Notes under the pieces: generated by a model
The model's database searches: none
Told to the model about the DNA's origin: nothing
The model's input: only the letters and a program-made list of their open reading frames with translations
Shown: one piece after another, positions 9,175-17,590 of the stretch
Layout: each line of letters opens with the position of its first letter
Position numbering within the stretch: the stretch's first letter is position 1
NCBI RefSeq assembly: GCF_050633145.1
Contig: NZ_JBOEFY010000037.1
Coordinates: 7,648 to 71,647 of the forward strand
DNA: 64,000 nt
Source: Kordia sp.
Lineage (GTDB): Bacteria > Bacteroidota > Bacteroidia > Flavobacteriales > Flavobacteriaceae
Direction of reading: 5' to 3'
Position numbers and translations under genes: made by a program

Positions 9175-10722
9175 GTGAATAAAGAATTAATAATTAGATC
9201 CAATTCCTCTGAAGTTGATTTTGCCTTGCTAAAGGATGGAAAACTTATTGAATTACATAAGGAAGCAGATAATAATGACTTTGCAGTTGGAGACGTATTT
9301 CTTGCTAAAATAAGAAAACCCGTTTCAGGACTTAATGCAGCTTTTGTAAACGTAGGCTACGAAAAAGATGCCTTTTTACATTATCATGATTTAGGACCAC
9401 AACTTCTTTCCTTATTAAAATTTATAAAACGTGTAAGCACAGGTAAATTAAAAGATTATACATTAAAAAACTTTCCGTTTGAAACCAATATTGACAAAAA
9501 TGGTAGCATCATGGATGCTGTAAAAGCCAATCAATCAATATTAGTTCAAATTGTGAAAGAGCCAATTTCAACCAAAGGTCCTAGAATTAGTTCTGAACTT
9601 TCTATTGCTGGTCGATATATTGTACTTGTTCCATTTTCGGAACGTGTTTCCATATCGCAAAAAATAGAAAGCAAGGAAGAAAAGGATCGATTAAAACGTT
9701 TGGTACTCAGTATCAAGCCTAAAGGTTTTGGCGTTATTGTACGTACAGTAGCTGAAGGTAAAAAAGTAGCTGAATTGGACCAAGATTTACAAAATTTGTT
9801 GACCAAATGGTCTACAATGTGTAAAAAATTGTATAAAGCTGAGCATCCTTCGAAAGTATTAAGTGAAATGAACAAAGCCTCTTCTATTTTAAGAGACATA
9901 TTTAATGAGTCATTCACAGGAATTCAAGTCGATGATGAAGATCTTTATTACGAGATTAAAGAATACGTGCAGAAGATTGCACCAAAAAAAGAGTCTATTG
10001 TAAAATTGTACCAATCTAAAGTTCCACCCTTTGAAAAATATGGTGTAGAACGACAAATTAAAACCTCTTTTGGAAAAACAGTTTCCATGAGTAAAGGCGC
10101 TTATTTAGTAATAGAACACACTGAAGCATTACATGTTATTGATGTAAACAGTGGAAACCGTTCTAACAAAGCCAAAACACAAGAGGACACTGCATTAGAA
10201 GTCAACATGATTGCCGCAAAAGAAATTGCTAGGCAACTCCGTTTACGAGATATGGGAGGAATCATCGTAATCGACTTTATCGATATGACCAATGCAGATC
10301 ACCGCAGAACTCTATTTGATCATTTGAAGACAGAAATGAAAGATGATAGAGCGAAACATAAAATATTACCTCCAAGTAAATTTGGTTTGGTACAAATTAC
10401 GCGACAAAGAGTACGACCAGAAGTAAATATTAAGACACGAGAAGTAAATCCGAATGGAAGTGGTAGCGAAGTGGAAGCTCCAATACTTATCGTTGATAAA
10501 ATTACAACTGATCTAGAAAGAATTTTAGCCAATAAAGATGGCTATAACGGAGTTACGTTAAACACGCATCCTTTTATTGCGGCGTATCTCACAAAAGGAT
10601 TTCCATCCATCCGTTTTAAGTGGTATATGAATCATAAAAAATGGGTAAAAATATTACCAAGAGATGCTTACACGTATCTAGAATATCGTTTTAAAGATAA
10701 AAACGATGAAGTTTATAAATAA
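9175..10722 (+). CDS. rng: Ribonuclease E/G family
   Basis: S1 region (GLNAAFVNVG..KDAFLH), IEHTEALHVIDVNSG, LRLRDMGGIIVIDFIDM. Confidence 0.93.
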   Translation: MNKELIIRSNSSEVDFALLKDGKLIELHKEADNNDFAVGDVFLAKIRKPVSGLNAAFVNVGYEKDAFLHYHDLGPQLLSLLKFIKRVSTGKLKDYTLKNFPFETNIDKNGSIMDAVKANQSILVQIVKEPISTKGPRISSELSIAGRYIVLVPFSERVSISQKIESKEEKDRLKRLVLSIKPKGFGVIVRTVAEGKKVAELDQDLQNLLTKWSTMCKKLYKAEHPSKVLSEMNKASSILRDIFNESFTGIQVDDEDLYYEIKEYVQKIAPKKESIVKLYQSKVPPFEKYGVERQIKTSFGKTVSMSKGAYLVIEHTEALHVIDVNSGNRSNKAKTQEDTALEVNMIAAKEIARQLRLRDMGGIIVIDFIDMTNADHRRTLFDHLKTEMKDDRAKHKILPPSKFGLVQITRQRVRPEVNIKTREVNPNGSGSEVEAPILIVDKITTDLERILANKDGYNGVTLNTHPFIAAYLTKGFPSIRFKWYMNHKKWVKILPRDAYTYLEYRFKDKNDEVYK

Positions 10723-10756
10723 CAAAAAGCGACCATCACTGGTCGCTTTTTTTGTT
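10643..10756 (+). repeat. Left direct repeat (att-like): last 80 nt of rng plus terminator
   Basis: 76/80 identical to 15486..15564, with a 44-nt perfect core (10648..10691 = 15491..15534). Confidence 0.85.
10724..10753 (+). terminator. rng intrinsic terminator
   Basis: aaaaagcgacca-tcac-tggtcgcttttttt. Confidence 0.85.
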
Positions 10757-10979
10757 TGTGGTTGTTATTTACCTTTATAACATATTATGAATATATTTTA
10801 ATATCTTATTAGAAATTTTACTTGTAATCTATTATTAATGTAATGAGTTAGATTAGAATTAGAAATTTTGAACCTATACGCAAAGGCTTGGAGGAAAATG
10901 TAGATTGAAAAAAATCTAACCTACCGAAAATCTAGTGAAATCAAGGGTTATAGAAAACGTTACTCAGAATTAAAAGCGA

Positions 10980-12560
10980 ATGCAAAATAATTTTAAATCA
11001 TATCGAATTTGTCAAATAGCCGTTTCCTTATTTACCGAAGTTGGGTTTGACGAAACATCAATGATTGATATTGCAGAAAAAGCTGCAATACCAGAAGTCG
11101 AATTGTATTCCTACTTTGGTCACAAAAACGATATCATTTTATTCTTTTTTCAAAGCATTAATTCAGACTGGCAGATAGCAGTTGATAATATTTCTTCAAA
11201 AAAAATAGCAAATCGATTTGAGGAGGCACTGATGCTAAAGGTTAAACTTATAACACCTTACGTTGGTTTTTTAAATCAAATATTAGGATTGCTAATCCAA
11301 AGTTCAAAAATTGGTGTAAAAGCTTCAAGAACTTCACACATTCGAGCTATCGGAATGCAAACGATGCAATCTATAATAGATGGATCAACCAACGGAAAGA
11401 AAACACAAAAAAAGGTTCCCCAACTTCCATCAATGATGTATTTCGCGCATTGGGCGGTTTTATTCACTCACATGCAAACAGAAGATAACGAAAAGGTTAC
11501 TACCTTAATAAAATTGTTATCCAAATCACTAAAACATTCTAAGAACTTTGCTCTAATTAAAAAGCTATTTCCAGTGTTCGATGAATTAGGGAAAATTACT
11601 GAGGATTTACTTAATGTGAATACTAAGTCGAAGCATACATTAGATAAGGAAATTTTAAAAGTAATCTTCAACAATCGGAAAGCAACCAATCTCGAAAAAC
11701 AATGTGAATTAAACCAATGCCCTACTTGTTTTGAGGTACATGAACATGCTGTGAATTTCTTTACCAGTCAAAACAAACCCATTCATTTTATTCTGCCTGC
11801 ATTCCCAGCGAAGTCACCAAACCGATCAAAAACAATCGGAAAAACACCAGATCTTGGAGAAGAAATAGCATTAAAAACGTTGGCGTCAATGTGTGCCGAG
11901 ATTGAAAGCATTTATGATCCTGGTGCTCAAATAACAATCTGTTCGGATGGTCGAATTTTTTCTGAACTCGTTGGAGTTTCTGACCACGATGTTACGGAAT
12001 ATGTTCAGGCTGTTTCTGATATGATTGCCCAACATGGAATAAAAAACATCAATGTTTTAAATCTCGAAGATTTCTGTGAAGGCGAAGACTTTGAAGAAAT
12101 GAGAAAGAACTTACTGACTGAATACGCTGAAGATATAGAAAATTTAAAATCTAAGATTAAAACTAAGCCAGATGCATTAAGTTTGTTTAATGGGATGCAT
12201 CGATTTATAACAGAAGATCGTCTTGGAATTGACAAAGACAAATCAAAAACGCGCGTAAAAGAAGAATCAAAACTAATCGCAATTAAAGTCATTCAACACA
12301 GCAATGCTTGGACTCGATTCTTGGCGAATGTTTATCCCGAAGCTATTCGGTTGTCTATTCATCCGTATCCTGCACATCACAAAAAAATAGGGATTCAACT
12401 AACGAAAGCTGAAGACAATTGGTTAACTCCTTGGCATGGAGTTATTACATTACAAAAAAATGACTACTTGTTGATGAAAAAAAGCAAAGCCGAAGAAATT
12501 GGAGCAACGCTAATTTACAATAATGATATTCCGTATTATTATTCCCTAAACGAAGACTAA
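10980..12560 (+). CDS. TetR-family regulator fused to PvcA/IsnA-type isocyanide synthase
   Basis: N-term A..LF..VGFDETSMIDIA..A.....LYSYF..K HTH; C-term ILPAFPAKSPN, PDLGE, ICSDGRIF, SNAW, IRLSIHP, WLTPWHG motifs. Confidence 0.88.
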   Translation: MQNNFKSYRICQIAVSLFTEVGFDETSMIDIAEKAAIPEVELYSYFGHKNDIILFFFQSINSDWQIAVDNISSKKIANRFEEALMLKVKLITPYVGFLNQILGLLIQSSKIGVKASRTSHIRAIGMQTMQSIIDGSTNGKKTQKKVPQLPSMMYFAHWAVLFTHMQTEDNEKVTTLIKLLSKSLKHSKNFALIKKLFPVFDELGKITEDLLNVNTKSKHTLDKEILKVIFNNRKATNLEKQCELNQCPTCFEVHEHAVNFFTSQNKPIHFILPAFPAKSPNRSKTIGKTPDLGEEIALKTLASMCAEIESIYDPGAQITICSDGRIFSELVGVSDHDVTEYVQAVSDMIAQHGIKNINVLNLEDFCEGEDFEEMRKNLLTEYAEDIENLKSKIKTKPDALSLFNGMHRFITEDRLGIDKDKSKTRVKEESKLIAIKVIQHSNAWTRFLANVYPEAIRLSIHPYPAHHKKIGIQLTKAEDNWLTPWHGVITLQKNDYLLMKKSKAEEIGATLIYNNDIPYYYSLNED

Positions 12561-14299
12561 TGGAGTATTCAATTGAAAAAATCGTTCCATTTGGTGTGCT
12601 TATCACCAATACCAAAAACACAGGTTCTATTGAACAATTTGACAAAGAACAACTTTACCGTTGGATTTCCGAATACAAGGTAGTTCTCTTTCGTGGCTAC
12701 ACACAACTACCCAAACAAAAATTGGCTTTATTTGGACAACGATTGGGAAAACCATTGCAATGGCCATTCGGATCGATTAACGAGTTAAAATTTAAACCAG
12801 ATACTAAGAATTATATTTTCACAAATCACAAGGTTCCTGTTCATTGGGATGGTGCATTTAGAGGTACCATTCCGCATATTATACTTTTTCAATGCATCAC
12901 AGCTCCAAAAAAGGAAGATTTTGGAGGAACAACATTTGTAAATACAGAAAAGATATTAGCGAATGCTAGTCAGGCGCAACTCGACGAATGGGAAAAGATT
13001 TCGATAACTTATACCACTGAAAAATTGGCGCATTATGGAGGTGAAATCACGCAGAAATTCATTGCCAAACATGAGGTTGAAGGTCAAAAGGTAATCAGGT
13101 ATGCAGAAGTTGTTGATGACATTAACCCTGTGCAATTGTCTGTTCATGGCCTTGATACTAAAACGTTCGATACATTTGAATCTGAGATTGAACACCTTTT
13201 GTATAGTCCTGAAAACTTATACACGCACAGATGGGAAGATGGAGATCTCGTTTTAGCTGATAATCATGCTCTTTTGCACGGACGAGAAGCTTATAAAAAG
13301 CAGAACGAACGTCATATTCAGCGAATCAACATCTTACACAGACCAAAAAATTCATTAAAAAGAATCATAGAAAACAGCCTAACAATAAGAAGAAAAGAAT
13401 TCTTTGTTGCGGAACTCCCTATATTTATTATTCCTTTATTATTGAGTATTACAGCTTGGAATGACTTCCTTAAACCCAGTTTATATTTAGGAATGATTGC
13501 CATATTTATGTTATTCAATATTGGTGATATGATTAATTGTTATGCTGATTACAAATTAGACTCAATCTACAAGAGCCATCTATCGAATGCAGTATATGAG
13601 CTTGGAAAAAAAAATGTGAAATGGCAAATTATTGTATCTGGAATAGTAGCGTTGGTGCTCACAACTATAATCGCGATTTCTACAAACCAATTGTATTTAA
13701 TACCCTTTACACTTTTTGGAACTTTTATGGGGCTTCAATATTCGATCAAACCATTTAAATTTAAATCCAGCGGAATGTTCCAGTTCTTCTGTCTTTGGGC
13801 AATTATTTTTTCTGGTCCAATGGTATATATTGCGATTATTACATCTGGACTTCCTAGTCTGGTTTACTTTCTAATATTTACCTTTTATGGTTTTCATCAA
13901 ATGGGGATTATTTTATTAAATACTGCAGAAGATTATCCAGAAGATTTGAGCGATAACCTCAATACAGTTATCGTCAGATTAGGTCTGCATCGATCTATGA
14001 AAATCGCTTTTAATATTGTTTTGTTCTCTGGAATTATTCTTAAAGCTTGTATGATTTATTTATTCTACGAACTCTCTGTGCCAATTTACATATATGTATC
14101 TATTCTGATTTTTAGTGTTGGATGGTTAAAAATCGTCACAGAATATAAAACTATTGTCACTAAGTTAACTACGCTTTCTGTGGATGATGCCGTTAAGGAA
14201 ATTAAGAAAAATGGTATGAAAGTTCCTGAATGGCTCAAATTAGGAGCCTATACATTTCTAGTTCCAATTATCACTTATTTTTTATGGAAAATACTCTAG
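12560..14299 (+). CDS. PvcB/IsnB-like Fe(II)/2OG dioxygenase (TauD fold) fused to UbiA-family prenyltransferase
   Basis: VVLFRG, HWD (HxD), GGTTF, HRWEDGDLVLADNHALLHGR..RHIQR; then multi-TM domain with NIGDMINCYADYKLD and NTAEDYPEDLSD Asp-rich motifs. Confidence 0.85.
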   Translation: MEYSIEKIVPFGVLITNTKNTGSIEQFDKEQLYRWISEYKVVLFRGYTQLPKQKLALFGQRLGKPLQWPFGSINELKFKPDTKNYIFTNHKVPVHWDGAFRGTIPHIILFQCITAPKKEDFGGTTFVNTEKILANASQAQLDEWEKISITYTTEKLAHYGGEITQKFIAKHEVEGQKVIRYAEVVDDINPVQLSVHGLDTKTFDTFESEIEHLLYSPENLYTHRWEDGDLVLADNHALLHGREAYKKQNERHIQRINILHRPKNSLKRIIENSLTIRRKEFFVAELPIFIIPLLLSITAWNDFLKPSLYLGMIAIFMLFNIGDMINCYADYKLDSIYKSHLSNAVYELGKKNVKWQIIVSGIVALVLTTIIAISTNQLYLIPFTLFGTFMGLQYSIKPFKFKSSGMFQFFCLWAIIFSGPMVYIAIITSGLPSLVYFLIFTFYGFHQMGIILLNTAEDYPEDLSDNLNTVIVRLGLHRSMKIAFNIVLFSGIILKACMIYLFYELSVPIYIYVSILIFSVGWLKIVTEYKTIVTKLTTLSVDDAVKEIKKNGMKVPEWLKLGAYTFLVPIITYFLWKIL

Positions 14300-15420
14300 A
14301 CACATATGATTGCATAATTATTGGTGGAGGTATCGCAGGCTTATCGCTATCAATACAACTATCTATAAAACAGCGAAATGTGTTATTAATTGAGAAAGGA
14401 AATTATCCGTCTCATAAAGTTTGTGGAGAATATATTTCGAATGAAAGTATTTCTTTTTTAAATGGATTGGGTTTAGAGGAAGTCCTTGCTGATTCTCCTA
14501 AAATAGATCGTTTATTCTTAAGTTCTCCATCCGGAATTAGCGTACGAAGAAAATTGGATATTGGCGGAATAGGAATATCTAGATATAAGCTAGATTATGA
14601 ACTTTATCTACAAGCGAAAAAAACCGGAGTGGATATCAAGACCGATACAAAAGTGACTAATATAACACGAGAAGGACATGGTGCATATAGTGTTGAAACA
14701 TCAAAGCAATCTTATCAGACATCGATTGTGATTGGCGCATTCGGAAAAAACTCTTCTATTGATAAGGTTCTTGGTCTTAATTATAAAGCGAAAAACAAGA
14801 AAAACCTATATGTTGCGGTCAAATATCATATCAAAGCAGATTTTGATACGTCTGTAGTAGAAATGCATAATTTCGAAGGAGGTTATTGTGGAATTTCATC
14901 TATTGAAGACGACAAGATTAATTTGAGTTACATAACTAAGGCTTCAGCGATTAAAAAATTTGGAAGTATTGAAAAAATGGAAAAGCATGTTTTATCAAAA
15001 AACCCACATCTAAGAAAATATTTTGAAGATGCAACGTTTCTTTTTAAATCTCCTTTAACCATATCGCATCTACATTTTGGCACAAAAAAAACAGTTGTAA
15101 ACGATATTATTATGATTGGCGATTCTGCTGGAAATATTGCACCACTTAGCGGGAACGGAATGAGTATAGCTTTGAAAAGTTCGCAGTTAGCTTTCAATGA
15201 AATTGAGCGCTATTTTAATTCTAAAATCTCGTATAAAAAAATGACTGATTCATATAATGAGCAGTATAACATTTTTTTTAAGAACAGAATCAGTCATGCT
15301 AAGTTTATTAATTTATTTTTCTTAAGCCCTTTCTTTTCGAATATAGCTTTCGCGTTCTTGAAAATTTTCCCAAAGCCTATTGATTGGATGAGCAAAAAAA
15401 TACGAGGAGATCATTTTTAA
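14284..15420 (+). CDS. FAD-dependent oxidoreductase (geranylgeranyl reductase / flavin monooxygenase-like)
   Basis: IIGGGIAG, HKVCGEYIS, IGDSAGNIAPLSGNGM; start moved to MENTLD (14284), overlapping the upstream gene's stop. Confidence 0.82.
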   Translation: MENTLDTYDCIIIGGGIAGLSLSIQLSIKQRNVLLIEKGNYPSHKVCGEYISNESISFLNGLGLEEVLADSPKIDRLFLSSPSGISVRRKLDIGGIGISRYKLDYELYLQAKKTGVDIKTDTKVTNITREGHGAYSVETSKQSYQTSIVIGAFGKNSSIDKVLGLNYKAKNKKNLYVAVKYHIKADFDTSVVEMHNFEGGYCGISSIEDDKINLSYITKASAIKKFGSIEKMEKHVLSKNPHLRKYFEDATFLFKSPLTISHLHFGTKKTVVNDIIMIGDSAGNIAPLSGNGMSIALKSSQLAFNEIERYFNSKISYKKMTDSYNEQYNIFFKNRISHAKFINLFFLSPFFSNIAFAFLKIFPKPIDWMSKKIRGDHF

Positions 15421-16490: not shown

Positions 16491-17060
16491 GTGAAATCAC
16501 AATTATTTACATATTTAAATCGTTACGTATCTTTTGAATCTGAAGAAATTGACTTGATATTCAATTCACTTTCACAAAAAACATTTCACAAAAAAGAATT
16601 CTTATTAGCCCAATATCAGGTTTGTAAACATCGCTTTTTTATTCTTGAAGGTTTGGTTCGTTACTATAAAACCGACAGCGATGGCAATGAAAATATAAGT
16701 CTCTTCGGAATTGAAAATTGGTGGATTACAAATTTAGATAGTTTTATAAACGAAGTTCCTTCACACAATGCAATTCAGGCAGTTGAGAACACAACTGTGT
16801 TATATATTTCAAAGAGCGATCTAGAGTTGTTGTATGAAAAAGTTCCAAAACTCGAACGCGCGTTTCGAATCATCACAGAAAAAACACTGATTGCTATTCA
16901 ACGAAAAGATGAGATTTACATGAAACAAAATAGCAAAGAACGTTATTACAGTCTTGTAGATACGATTCCAAATTTTGCCCAACGCGTTCCGCAATATATG
17001 ATTGCTTCCTATTTAGATATTACGCCCGAATATTTAAGTGAAATCCGAAAAAACAGGTAA
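16491..17060 (+). CDS. Crp/Fnr family transcriptional regulator
   Basis: cNMP-binding fold (FILEGLVR), C-terminal VPQYMIASYLDITPEYLSEIR HTH. Confidence 0.9.
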   Translation: MKSQLFTYLNRYVSFESEEIDLIFNSLSQKTFHKKEFLLAQYQVCKHRFFILEGLVRYYKTDSDGNENISLFGIENWWITNLDSFINEVPSHNAIQAVENTTVLYISKSDLELLYEKVPKLERAFRIITEKTLIAIQRKDEIYMKQNSKERYYSLVDTIPNFAQRVPQYMIASYLDITPEYLSEIRKNR

Positions 17061-17140: not shown

Positions 17141-17590
17141 ATGGAACGAATTTCATACGGAGATATTCCCAAAGGAATGTTTGAACATTTACAAAAGATA
17201 GAAGTATATATTAAAGAATCTTCTATAGACAATCAGCTTTTAGAACTTATTAAATTACGTGTTTCACAAAAAAATGGTTGTGCCTATTGCGTAGATATGC
17301 ATCACAAAGAATTAAAGAAAACTGGAGAAACAGAATTGCGACTTTCTTCTTTGTGTGTTTGGGAAGAAACACCTTATTTTTCTGAAAAAGAACGCACAGT
17401 ATTAACTTTTGCTGATACGCTAACAAAACTACAACGAACTCCTATTCCGGATGCAGTATACAATTCGTTATTACAGTTTTTTGATAAGAAAGAGATTTGC
17501 ATACTTACACTCGCCATCACACAAATAAATACTTGGAATCGATTGATGAAAACATTTTTATTTACGCCAGGGAATTATGTAGCAACTTAA
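17141..17590 (+). CDS. Carboxymuconolactone decarboxylase/AhpD-like protein
   Basis: ELIKLRVSQKNGCAYCVDMH, FSEKER, INTWNR. Confidence 0.9.
   Translation: MERISYGDIPKGMFEHLQKIEVYIKESSIDNQLLELIKLRVSQKNGCAYCVDMHHKELKKTGETELRLSSLCVWEETPYFSEKERTVLTFADTLTKLQRTPIPDAVYNSLLQFFDKKEICILTLAITQINTWNRLMKTFLFTPGNYVAT

Follow-up and report, generated by a model that had tools for sequence, protein, structure and literature searches.

A TetR-family module fused to a bacterial isonitrile synthase: a possible ligand-handling domain at the head of a mobile prenyltransferase cassette

Isonitrile natural products serve as metal-binding antibiotics and as virulence or competition factors. To our knowledge, the bacterial isonitrile synthases studied so far consist of a single domain. 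Trigger enzymes such as PutA and BirA carry a metabolic enzyme and a DNA-binding-type domain in one polypeptide, and their DNA binding has been demonstrated; we are aware of no described trigger enzyme built on a TetR module, and literature searches brought up no example. The multidomain isocyanide synthases (ICSs) known so far come from fungi and combine catalytic domains, as in ICS-TauD proteins such as XanB and in CrmA, an ICS joined to a nonribosomal peptide synthetase-like part (PMC5974471, PMC10153163, PMC9381783), and COQ9 is a protein of TetR fold for whose helix-turn-helix (HTH) DNA binding is not predicted and which binds prenyl lipids on behalf of coenzyme Q enzymes (PMC9774615; bioRxiv 10.1101/2021.11.15.468694). 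Here, we describe a gene in a 64,000-nt window (the whole stretch of DNA that was analysed) from Kordia sp. (assembly GCF_050633145.1, contig NZ_JBOEFY010000037.1), in which a TetR-family module and a PvcA/IsnA-type isonitrile synthase are encoded as one polypeptide. The characterised enzymes PvcA, IsnA, and PIsnA (PF05141; 3E59, 9DH4, 9DHM) are single-domain proteins of ~315–330 amino acids (aa). The C-terminal 300 aa of the Kordia protein resemble them in fold and in invariant motifs, and a PvcB/IsnB-type partner is likewise encoded next door; however, the fusion adds a 215-aa TetR module and a CCCH motif, and, unlike in the PvcA/IsnA/PIsnA systems, the partner dioxygenase is itself fused to a prenyltransferase. 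In literature searches, we came across no paper describing either the joining of a TetR module to an isonitrile synthase or the cassette that goes with it. The fusion is ancient, mobile, and conserved over at least six phyla, and we put at roughly 0.5 the probability that its TetR half has been exapted as a ligand-binding module that acts on the synthase, rather than being mainly an operator-binding repressor.

The fusion gene (10980..12560, forward strand) is one open reading frame (ORF) of 526 codons, with an ATG start and no internal stops. Its product comprises a TetR module of the TetR_C_23 type at aa 1–215 (10980..11624, forward strand), assigned from Pfam TetR_N, a profile match to the TetR protein 3c07, an AlphaFold2 model, and conservation, and a PvcA/IsnA-type synthase domain at aa 220–521 (11637..12542, forward strand), assigned from Pfam, PDB matches, template modelling (TM) scores, and invariant columns. 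A preliminary description, made from the DNA letters, had read the gene as a complete TetR protein of ~210 aa continuing in one frame into a complete isonitrile synthase, and this reading is accurate by Pfam, AlphaFold2, Foldseek, and profile comparison. In the window protein, Pfam places TetR_N at aa 14–53 with 32.8–34.4 bits (cut-off, 24) and DIT1_PvcA (PF05141) at aa 258–506 with 266.9 bits (cut-off, 26.4). The AlphaFold2 model, based on an alignment of 37 sequences, has a predicted local distance difference test (pLDDT) value of 88.4 and a predicted TM score (pTM) of 0.85; it shows TetR helices from aa 6 to ~211, arranged as a nine-helix fold, and the PvcA fold after them. As the pTM was obtained over the whole protein, it points to a fixed arrangement of the two domains, at least within the model.

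The two halves were each matched to solved structures. Foldseek aligned the C-terminal half with PIsnA/PvcA at TM scores of 0.92–0.94 (9dhm, 9dh4, 3e59) and the N-terminal half with 3c07 at 0.73–0.78; in profile searches against the PDB, the synthase profile matched 3e59 at E 1e-96 and 9dh4/9dhm at E 4e-91, and the family profile of the N-terminal module matched 3c07 from end to end (profile positions 2–213, E 1.6e-33). Within the TetR module, the HTH helices lie at aa 6–21, 28–34, and 39–45, the last of which is the recognition helix (IPEVELY), and the ligand-binding and dimerisation helices of the TetR C-terminal domain occupy aa 49–211, with conserved R79, K87, T118, R122, Y154, and H157. 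The stretch aa 187–217 was also considered as a membrane-binding linker, a candidate that was rejected: in the alignment with 3c07, it falls on the final helix, which places it inside the TetR_C_23 domain.

The synthase domain carries the invariant motifs LPAFPAKSPN, CSDGR, HRF, and WLTPWHG, of which LPAFPAKSPN, CSDGR, and WLTPWHG align with the solved enzymes, and as far as its sequence allows judgement, the domain is catalytically intact. The NCBIfam PvcA model (NF045653, tyrosine isonitrile synthase) spans aa 220–521 with 237.9 bits, which is under its 600-bit equivalog cut-off; the protein is thus placed in the PvcA/IsnA family with no substrate assigned. The string KEILKVIFNNRK..C..CPTC, close to which the synthase had been proposed to begin, is located at aa 223–250. 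The cysteine motif at the start of the synthase domain, C242-x4-C247-x2-C250-x3-H254 (aa 242–254; 11703..11741, forward strand), is kept in 61–65 of 73 fused proteins, and 10 Hymenobacter loci have lost all four of its residues at once. It is specific to the fused family, with no counterpart in PvcA or PIsnA in the profile alignment, and is probably a metal (Zn) site.

A whole-protein search returned more than 115 clusters containing both Pfam domains, 500–580 aa in length and 37–68% identical, named from Myroides, Fluviicola, Flavobacterium, Pedobacter, Taibaiella, and Hymenobacter. In a scan of one genome per species, 483 PvcA relatives were found, and about 70 of the best 80 were full-length fusions, with identity down to ~31%. 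Among these best 80, fused proteins came from Bacteroidota, Acidobacteriota (mostly Pyrinomonadaceae), Planctomycetota, Abditibacteriota, Armatimonadota, Dormiibacterota, and Bdellovibrionota. No split pair of TetR and PvcA genes was found either in the neighbourhoods of standalone relatives of the N-terminal domain or at unfused PvcA loci, and a related TetR gene was absent near the unfused PvcA loci L074, L076, L079, and L080. The sole interrupted copy (L059) has a PvcB gene that is also frameshifted, which marks this locus as damaged or badly assembled. The distribution is nevertheless patchy: only 1 of 201 sampled Flavobacteriaceae genomes, that of the window, has the fusion, five congeneric genomes gave no TetR match of fused size, and the cassette was located in unrelated neighbourhoods among the loci inspected. 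Such patchy occurrence is consistent with horizontal acquisition of the Kordia cassette beside an RNase G/E-family gene. In public annotation, the fused proteins are labelled "Dit1/AcrR" or "isonitrile synthase family protein".

The TetR module can be traced to regulators that stand alone. A profile of 29 fused N-terminal modules, searched against 1.84 billion representatives, gave 253 matches below 1e-30, and ~87 of the top 150 were standalone proteins of 205–260 aa that matched from end to end; a word-based search with the N-terminal domain alone returned nothing, so that these relatives came up in the profile search only. They carry TetR_N and TetR_C_23 with a canonical HTH (..TTMRDIA..AGCSLGLAYRYF.SKEDL..) and have R79, R122, Y154, and H157 in common with the fused proteins, of which 11 of 29 were matched by the Pfam TetR_C_23 model. 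The end-to-end match, the TetR_C_23 assignment of the standalone relatives, and the shared pocket residues indicate that the fused module descends from an ordinary TetR subfamily. The backbone of the N-domain tree is poorly resolved, and the tree neither establishes nor rules out that the fusion arose only once. No PvcA gene was present near standalone relatives in the six neighbourhoods read (among L119–L129), and their contexts were unrelated. In three loci of standalone relatives, small genes of the same direction and without a Pfam family follow the standalone TetR gene (L119:5660-7920, L124:1620-2672, and L126:941-2428); these genes may be the real targets of the standalone regulators and a hint at the ligand of the subfamily.

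DNA binders are expected to conserve the HTH above the ligand domain. This holds for the standalone relatives, where mean pairwise identity is 51% in the HTH versus 29% in the ligand domain (ratio, 1.76), whereas in the fused proteins the two values are 35% and 32.5% (ratio, 1.07), and in the clade of the window protein 48% and 44% (ratio, 1.10). Among the 29 fused N-terminal modules, TetR_N is matched at E<=0.1 in 19 and no longer matched in 10. The recognition helix of the window protein, IPEVELY, departs from the pattern of the TetR proteins of its own genome ([VIL][STANK][KRE][GAK][TSAL][LIV][YF]) and from CSLGLAY of the standalone relatives, the canonical S-x-G-[TSAL]-[LIVA]-Y being replaced by P-E-V-E-L-Y. 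Pro has taken the place of Ser at position 38 in most fused lineages (the window branch, Hymenobacter, and Acidobacteriota). E39 is invariant, and 8 of 9 members of the window clade carry an acidic residue at position 41. We take these Glu positions to correspond to residues that touch DNA in the TetR (Q38/T40) and QacR (K36/N38) complexes (1QPI, 1JT0). The net charge of aa 9–58 is −5 in the window protein, outside the range of the TetR proteins of its own genome, and averages −2.25 over 73 fused proteins, as compared with +1.1 in 35 ordinary TetR proteins (window genome and relatives); HTH charge is only suggestive, though, since it spans −6 to +6 (mean, 0.0) among the standalone relatives. 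Across phyla, all of the invariant or near-invariant polar residues of the N-terminal half (R79, K87, T118, R122, Y154, and H157) lie in the ligand domain and none in the HTH. By several independent sequence proxies, the HTH of the fused proteins thus looks less like a DNA binder than that of the standalone relatives, and ligand sensing by the TetR ligand domain is plausible because R79, R122, Y154, and H157 are invariant or nearly so. Fusion L030, from the metagenome-assembled genome of an actinomycete, has a canonical HTH (CSLGLAYRYF) and an 11-pair palindrome ~60 nt before its start, inside TGTAAAAATGAACACGTTCACTTTTACG. DNA binding may have persisted in some of the fusions that branch early.

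In every evaluable locus, the fusion gene occurs with genes for PvcB and for an aromatic prenyltransferase, and the pairing with the latter is obligate: a prenyltransferase was present in 68 of 68 evaluable loci (UbiA in 65, the unrelated ABBA type in 3), the remaining loci ending at contig edges. In the window, the second gene (12560..14299, forward strand) encodes a 579-aa protein in which a PvcB-type Fe/2-oxoglutarate dioxygenase is fused to a UbiA membrane prenyltransferase (Pfam TauD, 8.6e-35; UbiA, 1.3e-15); its start codon and the stop codon of the fusion gene overlap (TAATG), so that the dioxygenase is directly adjacent to the synthase. Across relatives, 31 loci encode PvcB and UbiA in a single frame and 34 as separate genes, and in the three ABBA loci a soluble aromatic prenyltransferase (PTase_Orf2) replaces UbiA (L045:9500-10453 and L075:9528-10469, E 1e-50 to 1e-52; L069:3625-4554, tblastn 2e-60). 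A cytochrome P450 gene adjoins the ABBA prenyltransferase gene in L075. The third gene of the Bacteroidota cassettes, found in 26 loci, encodes a flavoprotein of the geranylgeranyl-reductase family; the window copy (14230..15420, forward strand) scores 122.8 bits with the NCBIfam GG-red-SF model, which is below the model cut-off. In the Acidobacteriota-type cassettes (31 loci, L034–L078), a Coq4-like ORF of ~150 aa stands between the fusion and PvcB (for example, L039:8502-8993 and L056:8551-9006). This ORF has an HDxxH...E motif (HDLHH..x11..E), was matched by Pfam Coq4 in 10 of 10 cases tested (best E, 5e-6), and its profile matched the Coq4-like structure 3msq in the PDB at 1e-6; none was found in the window genome. 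The product of the cassette is most likely a prenylated aryl (vinyl) isonitrile. Further downstream in the window, a Crp/Fnr-type cyclic nucleotide-binding protein (16491-17060) and a carboxymuconolactone-decarboxylase-family protein (17141-17590) are encoded; neither is conserved with the cassette elsewhere.

We propose that an ordinary regulator of the TetR_C_23 subfamily became fused to the N-terminus of a catalytically intact PvcA/IsnA synthase, and that the fusion gene came to stand first in a compact and horizontally mobile cassette, ahead of a PvcB gene that is fused to, or followed by, an aromatic prenyltransferase gene. The fused TetR half would then most likely no longer be mainly an operator-binding repressor; rather, it would keep its ligand pocket and its dimer helices and would pack against the synthase. 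We infer that the ligand is a hydrophobic or anionic molecule of the pathway, be it the prenylated product, an intermediate, or the prenyl donor, and that the ligand-bound module either throttles the synthase allosterically or hands its ligand on at the prenylation step, in a way comparable to COQ9.

The alternative that survives best is also the one the preliminary description had put forward, namely, that the protein is a trigger enzyme: the fused synthase would repress its own operon, with a TetR dimer seated on TAGATT/AATCTA repeats between promoter and start and released by a product or precursor of the pathway. From the sequence comparisons made here, we regard this as possible, if on the improbable side. 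Several observations speak for such a repressor and weigh against an exapted module. The TetR fold is complete, the HTH of the window protein is still above the Pfam TetR_N cut-off, and its three HTH helices are modelled at pLDDT >90; the charge of the fused HTH falls within the span of the standalone relatives; a few relatives with canonical HTHs, L030 (11 pairs) and L010, have good upstream palindromes; and no other regulator was found in the cassette in the loci inspected, so that a built-in repressor would make sense for a self-contained and mobile unit of two or three genes. The spacer of the window also contains an unusual cluster of hexamers, one pair of which, inverted and with a centre-to-centre spacing of 12 bp, would suit a TetR dimer.

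The control region of the cassette begins at an intrinsic terminator hairpin (10724..10751, forward strand; a perfect 12-bp stem with a 4-nt loop and a T-run) that belongs to the upstream RNase G/E-family gene (9175..10722) and forms the upstream edge of this region. A candidate promoter of the Bacteroidota type (10751..10777, forward strand) was called weakly by pattern search, with TTTG at 10751/10755 and TACCTTTA at 10770; its pattern follows the promoter consensus of Bacteroidetes, and its TACCTTT box was found again upstream of the Hymenobacter orthologues. A genuine promoter at this place would put the TAGATT repeats either within the transcribed leader or a short way downstream of the promoter itself. 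The leader of ~200 nt gave no Rfam match near threshold, and its predicted fold did not differ from shuffles (z = −0.10), which leaves no sign of an RNA element there. The repeats themselves are present where the preliminary description had placed them, and a fifth copy was found, so that the candidate operator spans 10826..10934: AATCTA at 10826-10831 and TAGATT at 10849-10854 are separated by 17 nt (AATCTA-N17-TAGATT), TAGATT at 10901-10906 and AATCTA at 10913-10918 by 6 nt (TAGATT-N6-AATCTA, at −79), and the fifth hexamer is AATCTA at 10929-10934. Five hexamers in 109 nt compare with 59 in the 64 kb of the window, and in dinucleotide shuffles of the upstream 200 nt, five copies were reached in 0 of 200 (p ~0.01).

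The comparative evidence, however, does not favour this cluster as an operator. Taken as a palindrome alone, 6+6 nt around a 6-nt gap is unremarkable in a spacer this rich in AT (p 0.63), and with 68 loci in the family, a single one at p ~0.01 is to be expected by chance. TAGATT is absent upstream of the two nearest orthologues, L130 (68% identity) and L131 (64%), even though their recognition helices (ITEAELY and ISEAELY, respectively) are near-identical to IPEVELY, and their spacers share no 12-mer beyond chance with that of the window; 12-mers shared pairwise among the loci of the window clade were likewise at chance level. Over 38–68 related loci, upstream palindromes, repeated hexamers, and 14-mer pairs were at chance level, the few significant cases being long hairpins, and neither visual comparison nor MAFFT alignment of the upstream regions revealed a conserved operator. 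Genome-wide, TAGATT-N4-8-AATCTA occurs at 7 sites only, without an evident regulon. The HTH itself argues in the same direction: its extra conservation is lost, 10 of 29 members fail the TetR_N model, and conserved Glu residues presumably occupy the positions at which TetR and QacR contact DNA. Of the trigger-enzyme proposal, the part that stands is therefore the union of an enzyme and a DNA-binding-type domain in one polypeptide; binding to its own operator is not supported, as the repeats are unconserved, upstream enrichment is missing, and the HTH is relaxed and acidic at its DNA-facing positions.

A bolder form of the exapted-module proposal, and one we hold to be unlikely as a whole, is that the TetR half is a bacterial and independently evolved counterpart of COQ9, which would have given up DNA and would bind prenylated aromatic intermediates or the prenyl donor. 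Together with the UbiA/COQ2-type prenyltransferase, the flavoenzyme, and, in the Acidobacteriota-type cassettes, the Coq4-like protein, it would form a small, membrane-associated metabolon that builds a lipid-anchored isonitrile. If this were true, the cassette would specify prenylated isonitrile lipids of a class not described before, in at least six phyla.

It is more doubtful still that the TetR module is a scaffold only, that is, a dimerisation or folding domain which makes the synthase an obligate dimer and has neither a DNA nor a ligand function. Such a role would be in keeping with the retention of the dimer-forming helices (aa 149–185) and with the relaxed constraint on the HTH, but across phyla, where overall identity is 20–30%, R79, K87, R122, Y154, and H157 show little or no variation, which goes beyond the need of a mere scaffold, and the HTH helices have been kept for very long, with residues conserved within clades (E39). 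Finally, the idea that a sequencing error, or the recent loss of a stop codon in the Kordia strain, joined two genes, to which the preliminary description had drawn attention by asking whether homologues are always split, had no observation in its favour and is rejected with practically no doubt left, because the same continuous frame recurs in more than 115 protein clusters and ~70 loci across phyla, in independent assemblies.

The cassette is compact (two or three genes), uncharacterised, and widespread in soil, freshwater, and marine bacteria, and its gene content predicts a prenylated and probably membrane-bound isonitrile. If the module has remained a repressor of its own operon, the protein would be a trigger enzyme of the TetR type; if it has been exapted for ligand handling, it would be a parallel to the eukaryotic COQ9. 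Whichever holds, it would be a first for the TetR family and of use in the engineering of pathways that are self-regulated or feedback-controlled.

Set against the known systems, the fusion resembles each of them in part. It shares with PutA and BirA the presence of an enzyme and a DNA-binding-type domain in one chain, but for the fusion, the comparative proxies for DNA binding are negative. Its whole N-terminal module aligns with the TetR_C_23 regulators (PF00440 and PF17931; 3C07, Streptomyces coelicolor), with which it has the signature R79, R122, Y154, and H157 in common; the standalone members, however, keep a canonical HTH that is conserved above the ligand domain and are encoded away from PvcA genes, whereas the fused copies have a diverged, acidic HTH. 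As in the fungal multidomain enzymes, an ICS domain shares its chain with a further functional module of its pathway; the difference is that a regulator-type module has been added here, and that the dioxygenase is fused to a prenyltransferase instead. With COQ9, which in the coenzyme Q metabolon serves enzymes that work on prenylated aromatic intermediates from such a prenyltransferase, the fusion shares the TetR fold and the context of a UbiA/COQ2-type prenyltransferase, together with a Coq4-like gene that accompanies the fusion in 31 loci. Human COQ9 (6awl) was among the Foldseek matches, with TMt values of 0.58–0.70 that were no better than those of many other TetR proteins, the Pfam COQ9 model matched none of the 29 fused N-terminal domains at E<=0.1, and, unlike COQ9, the fused module descends from the bacterial TetR_C_23 regulators. 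COQ9 may thus be the closest functional analogy, the resemblance lying in a possible mode of action rather than in family membership.

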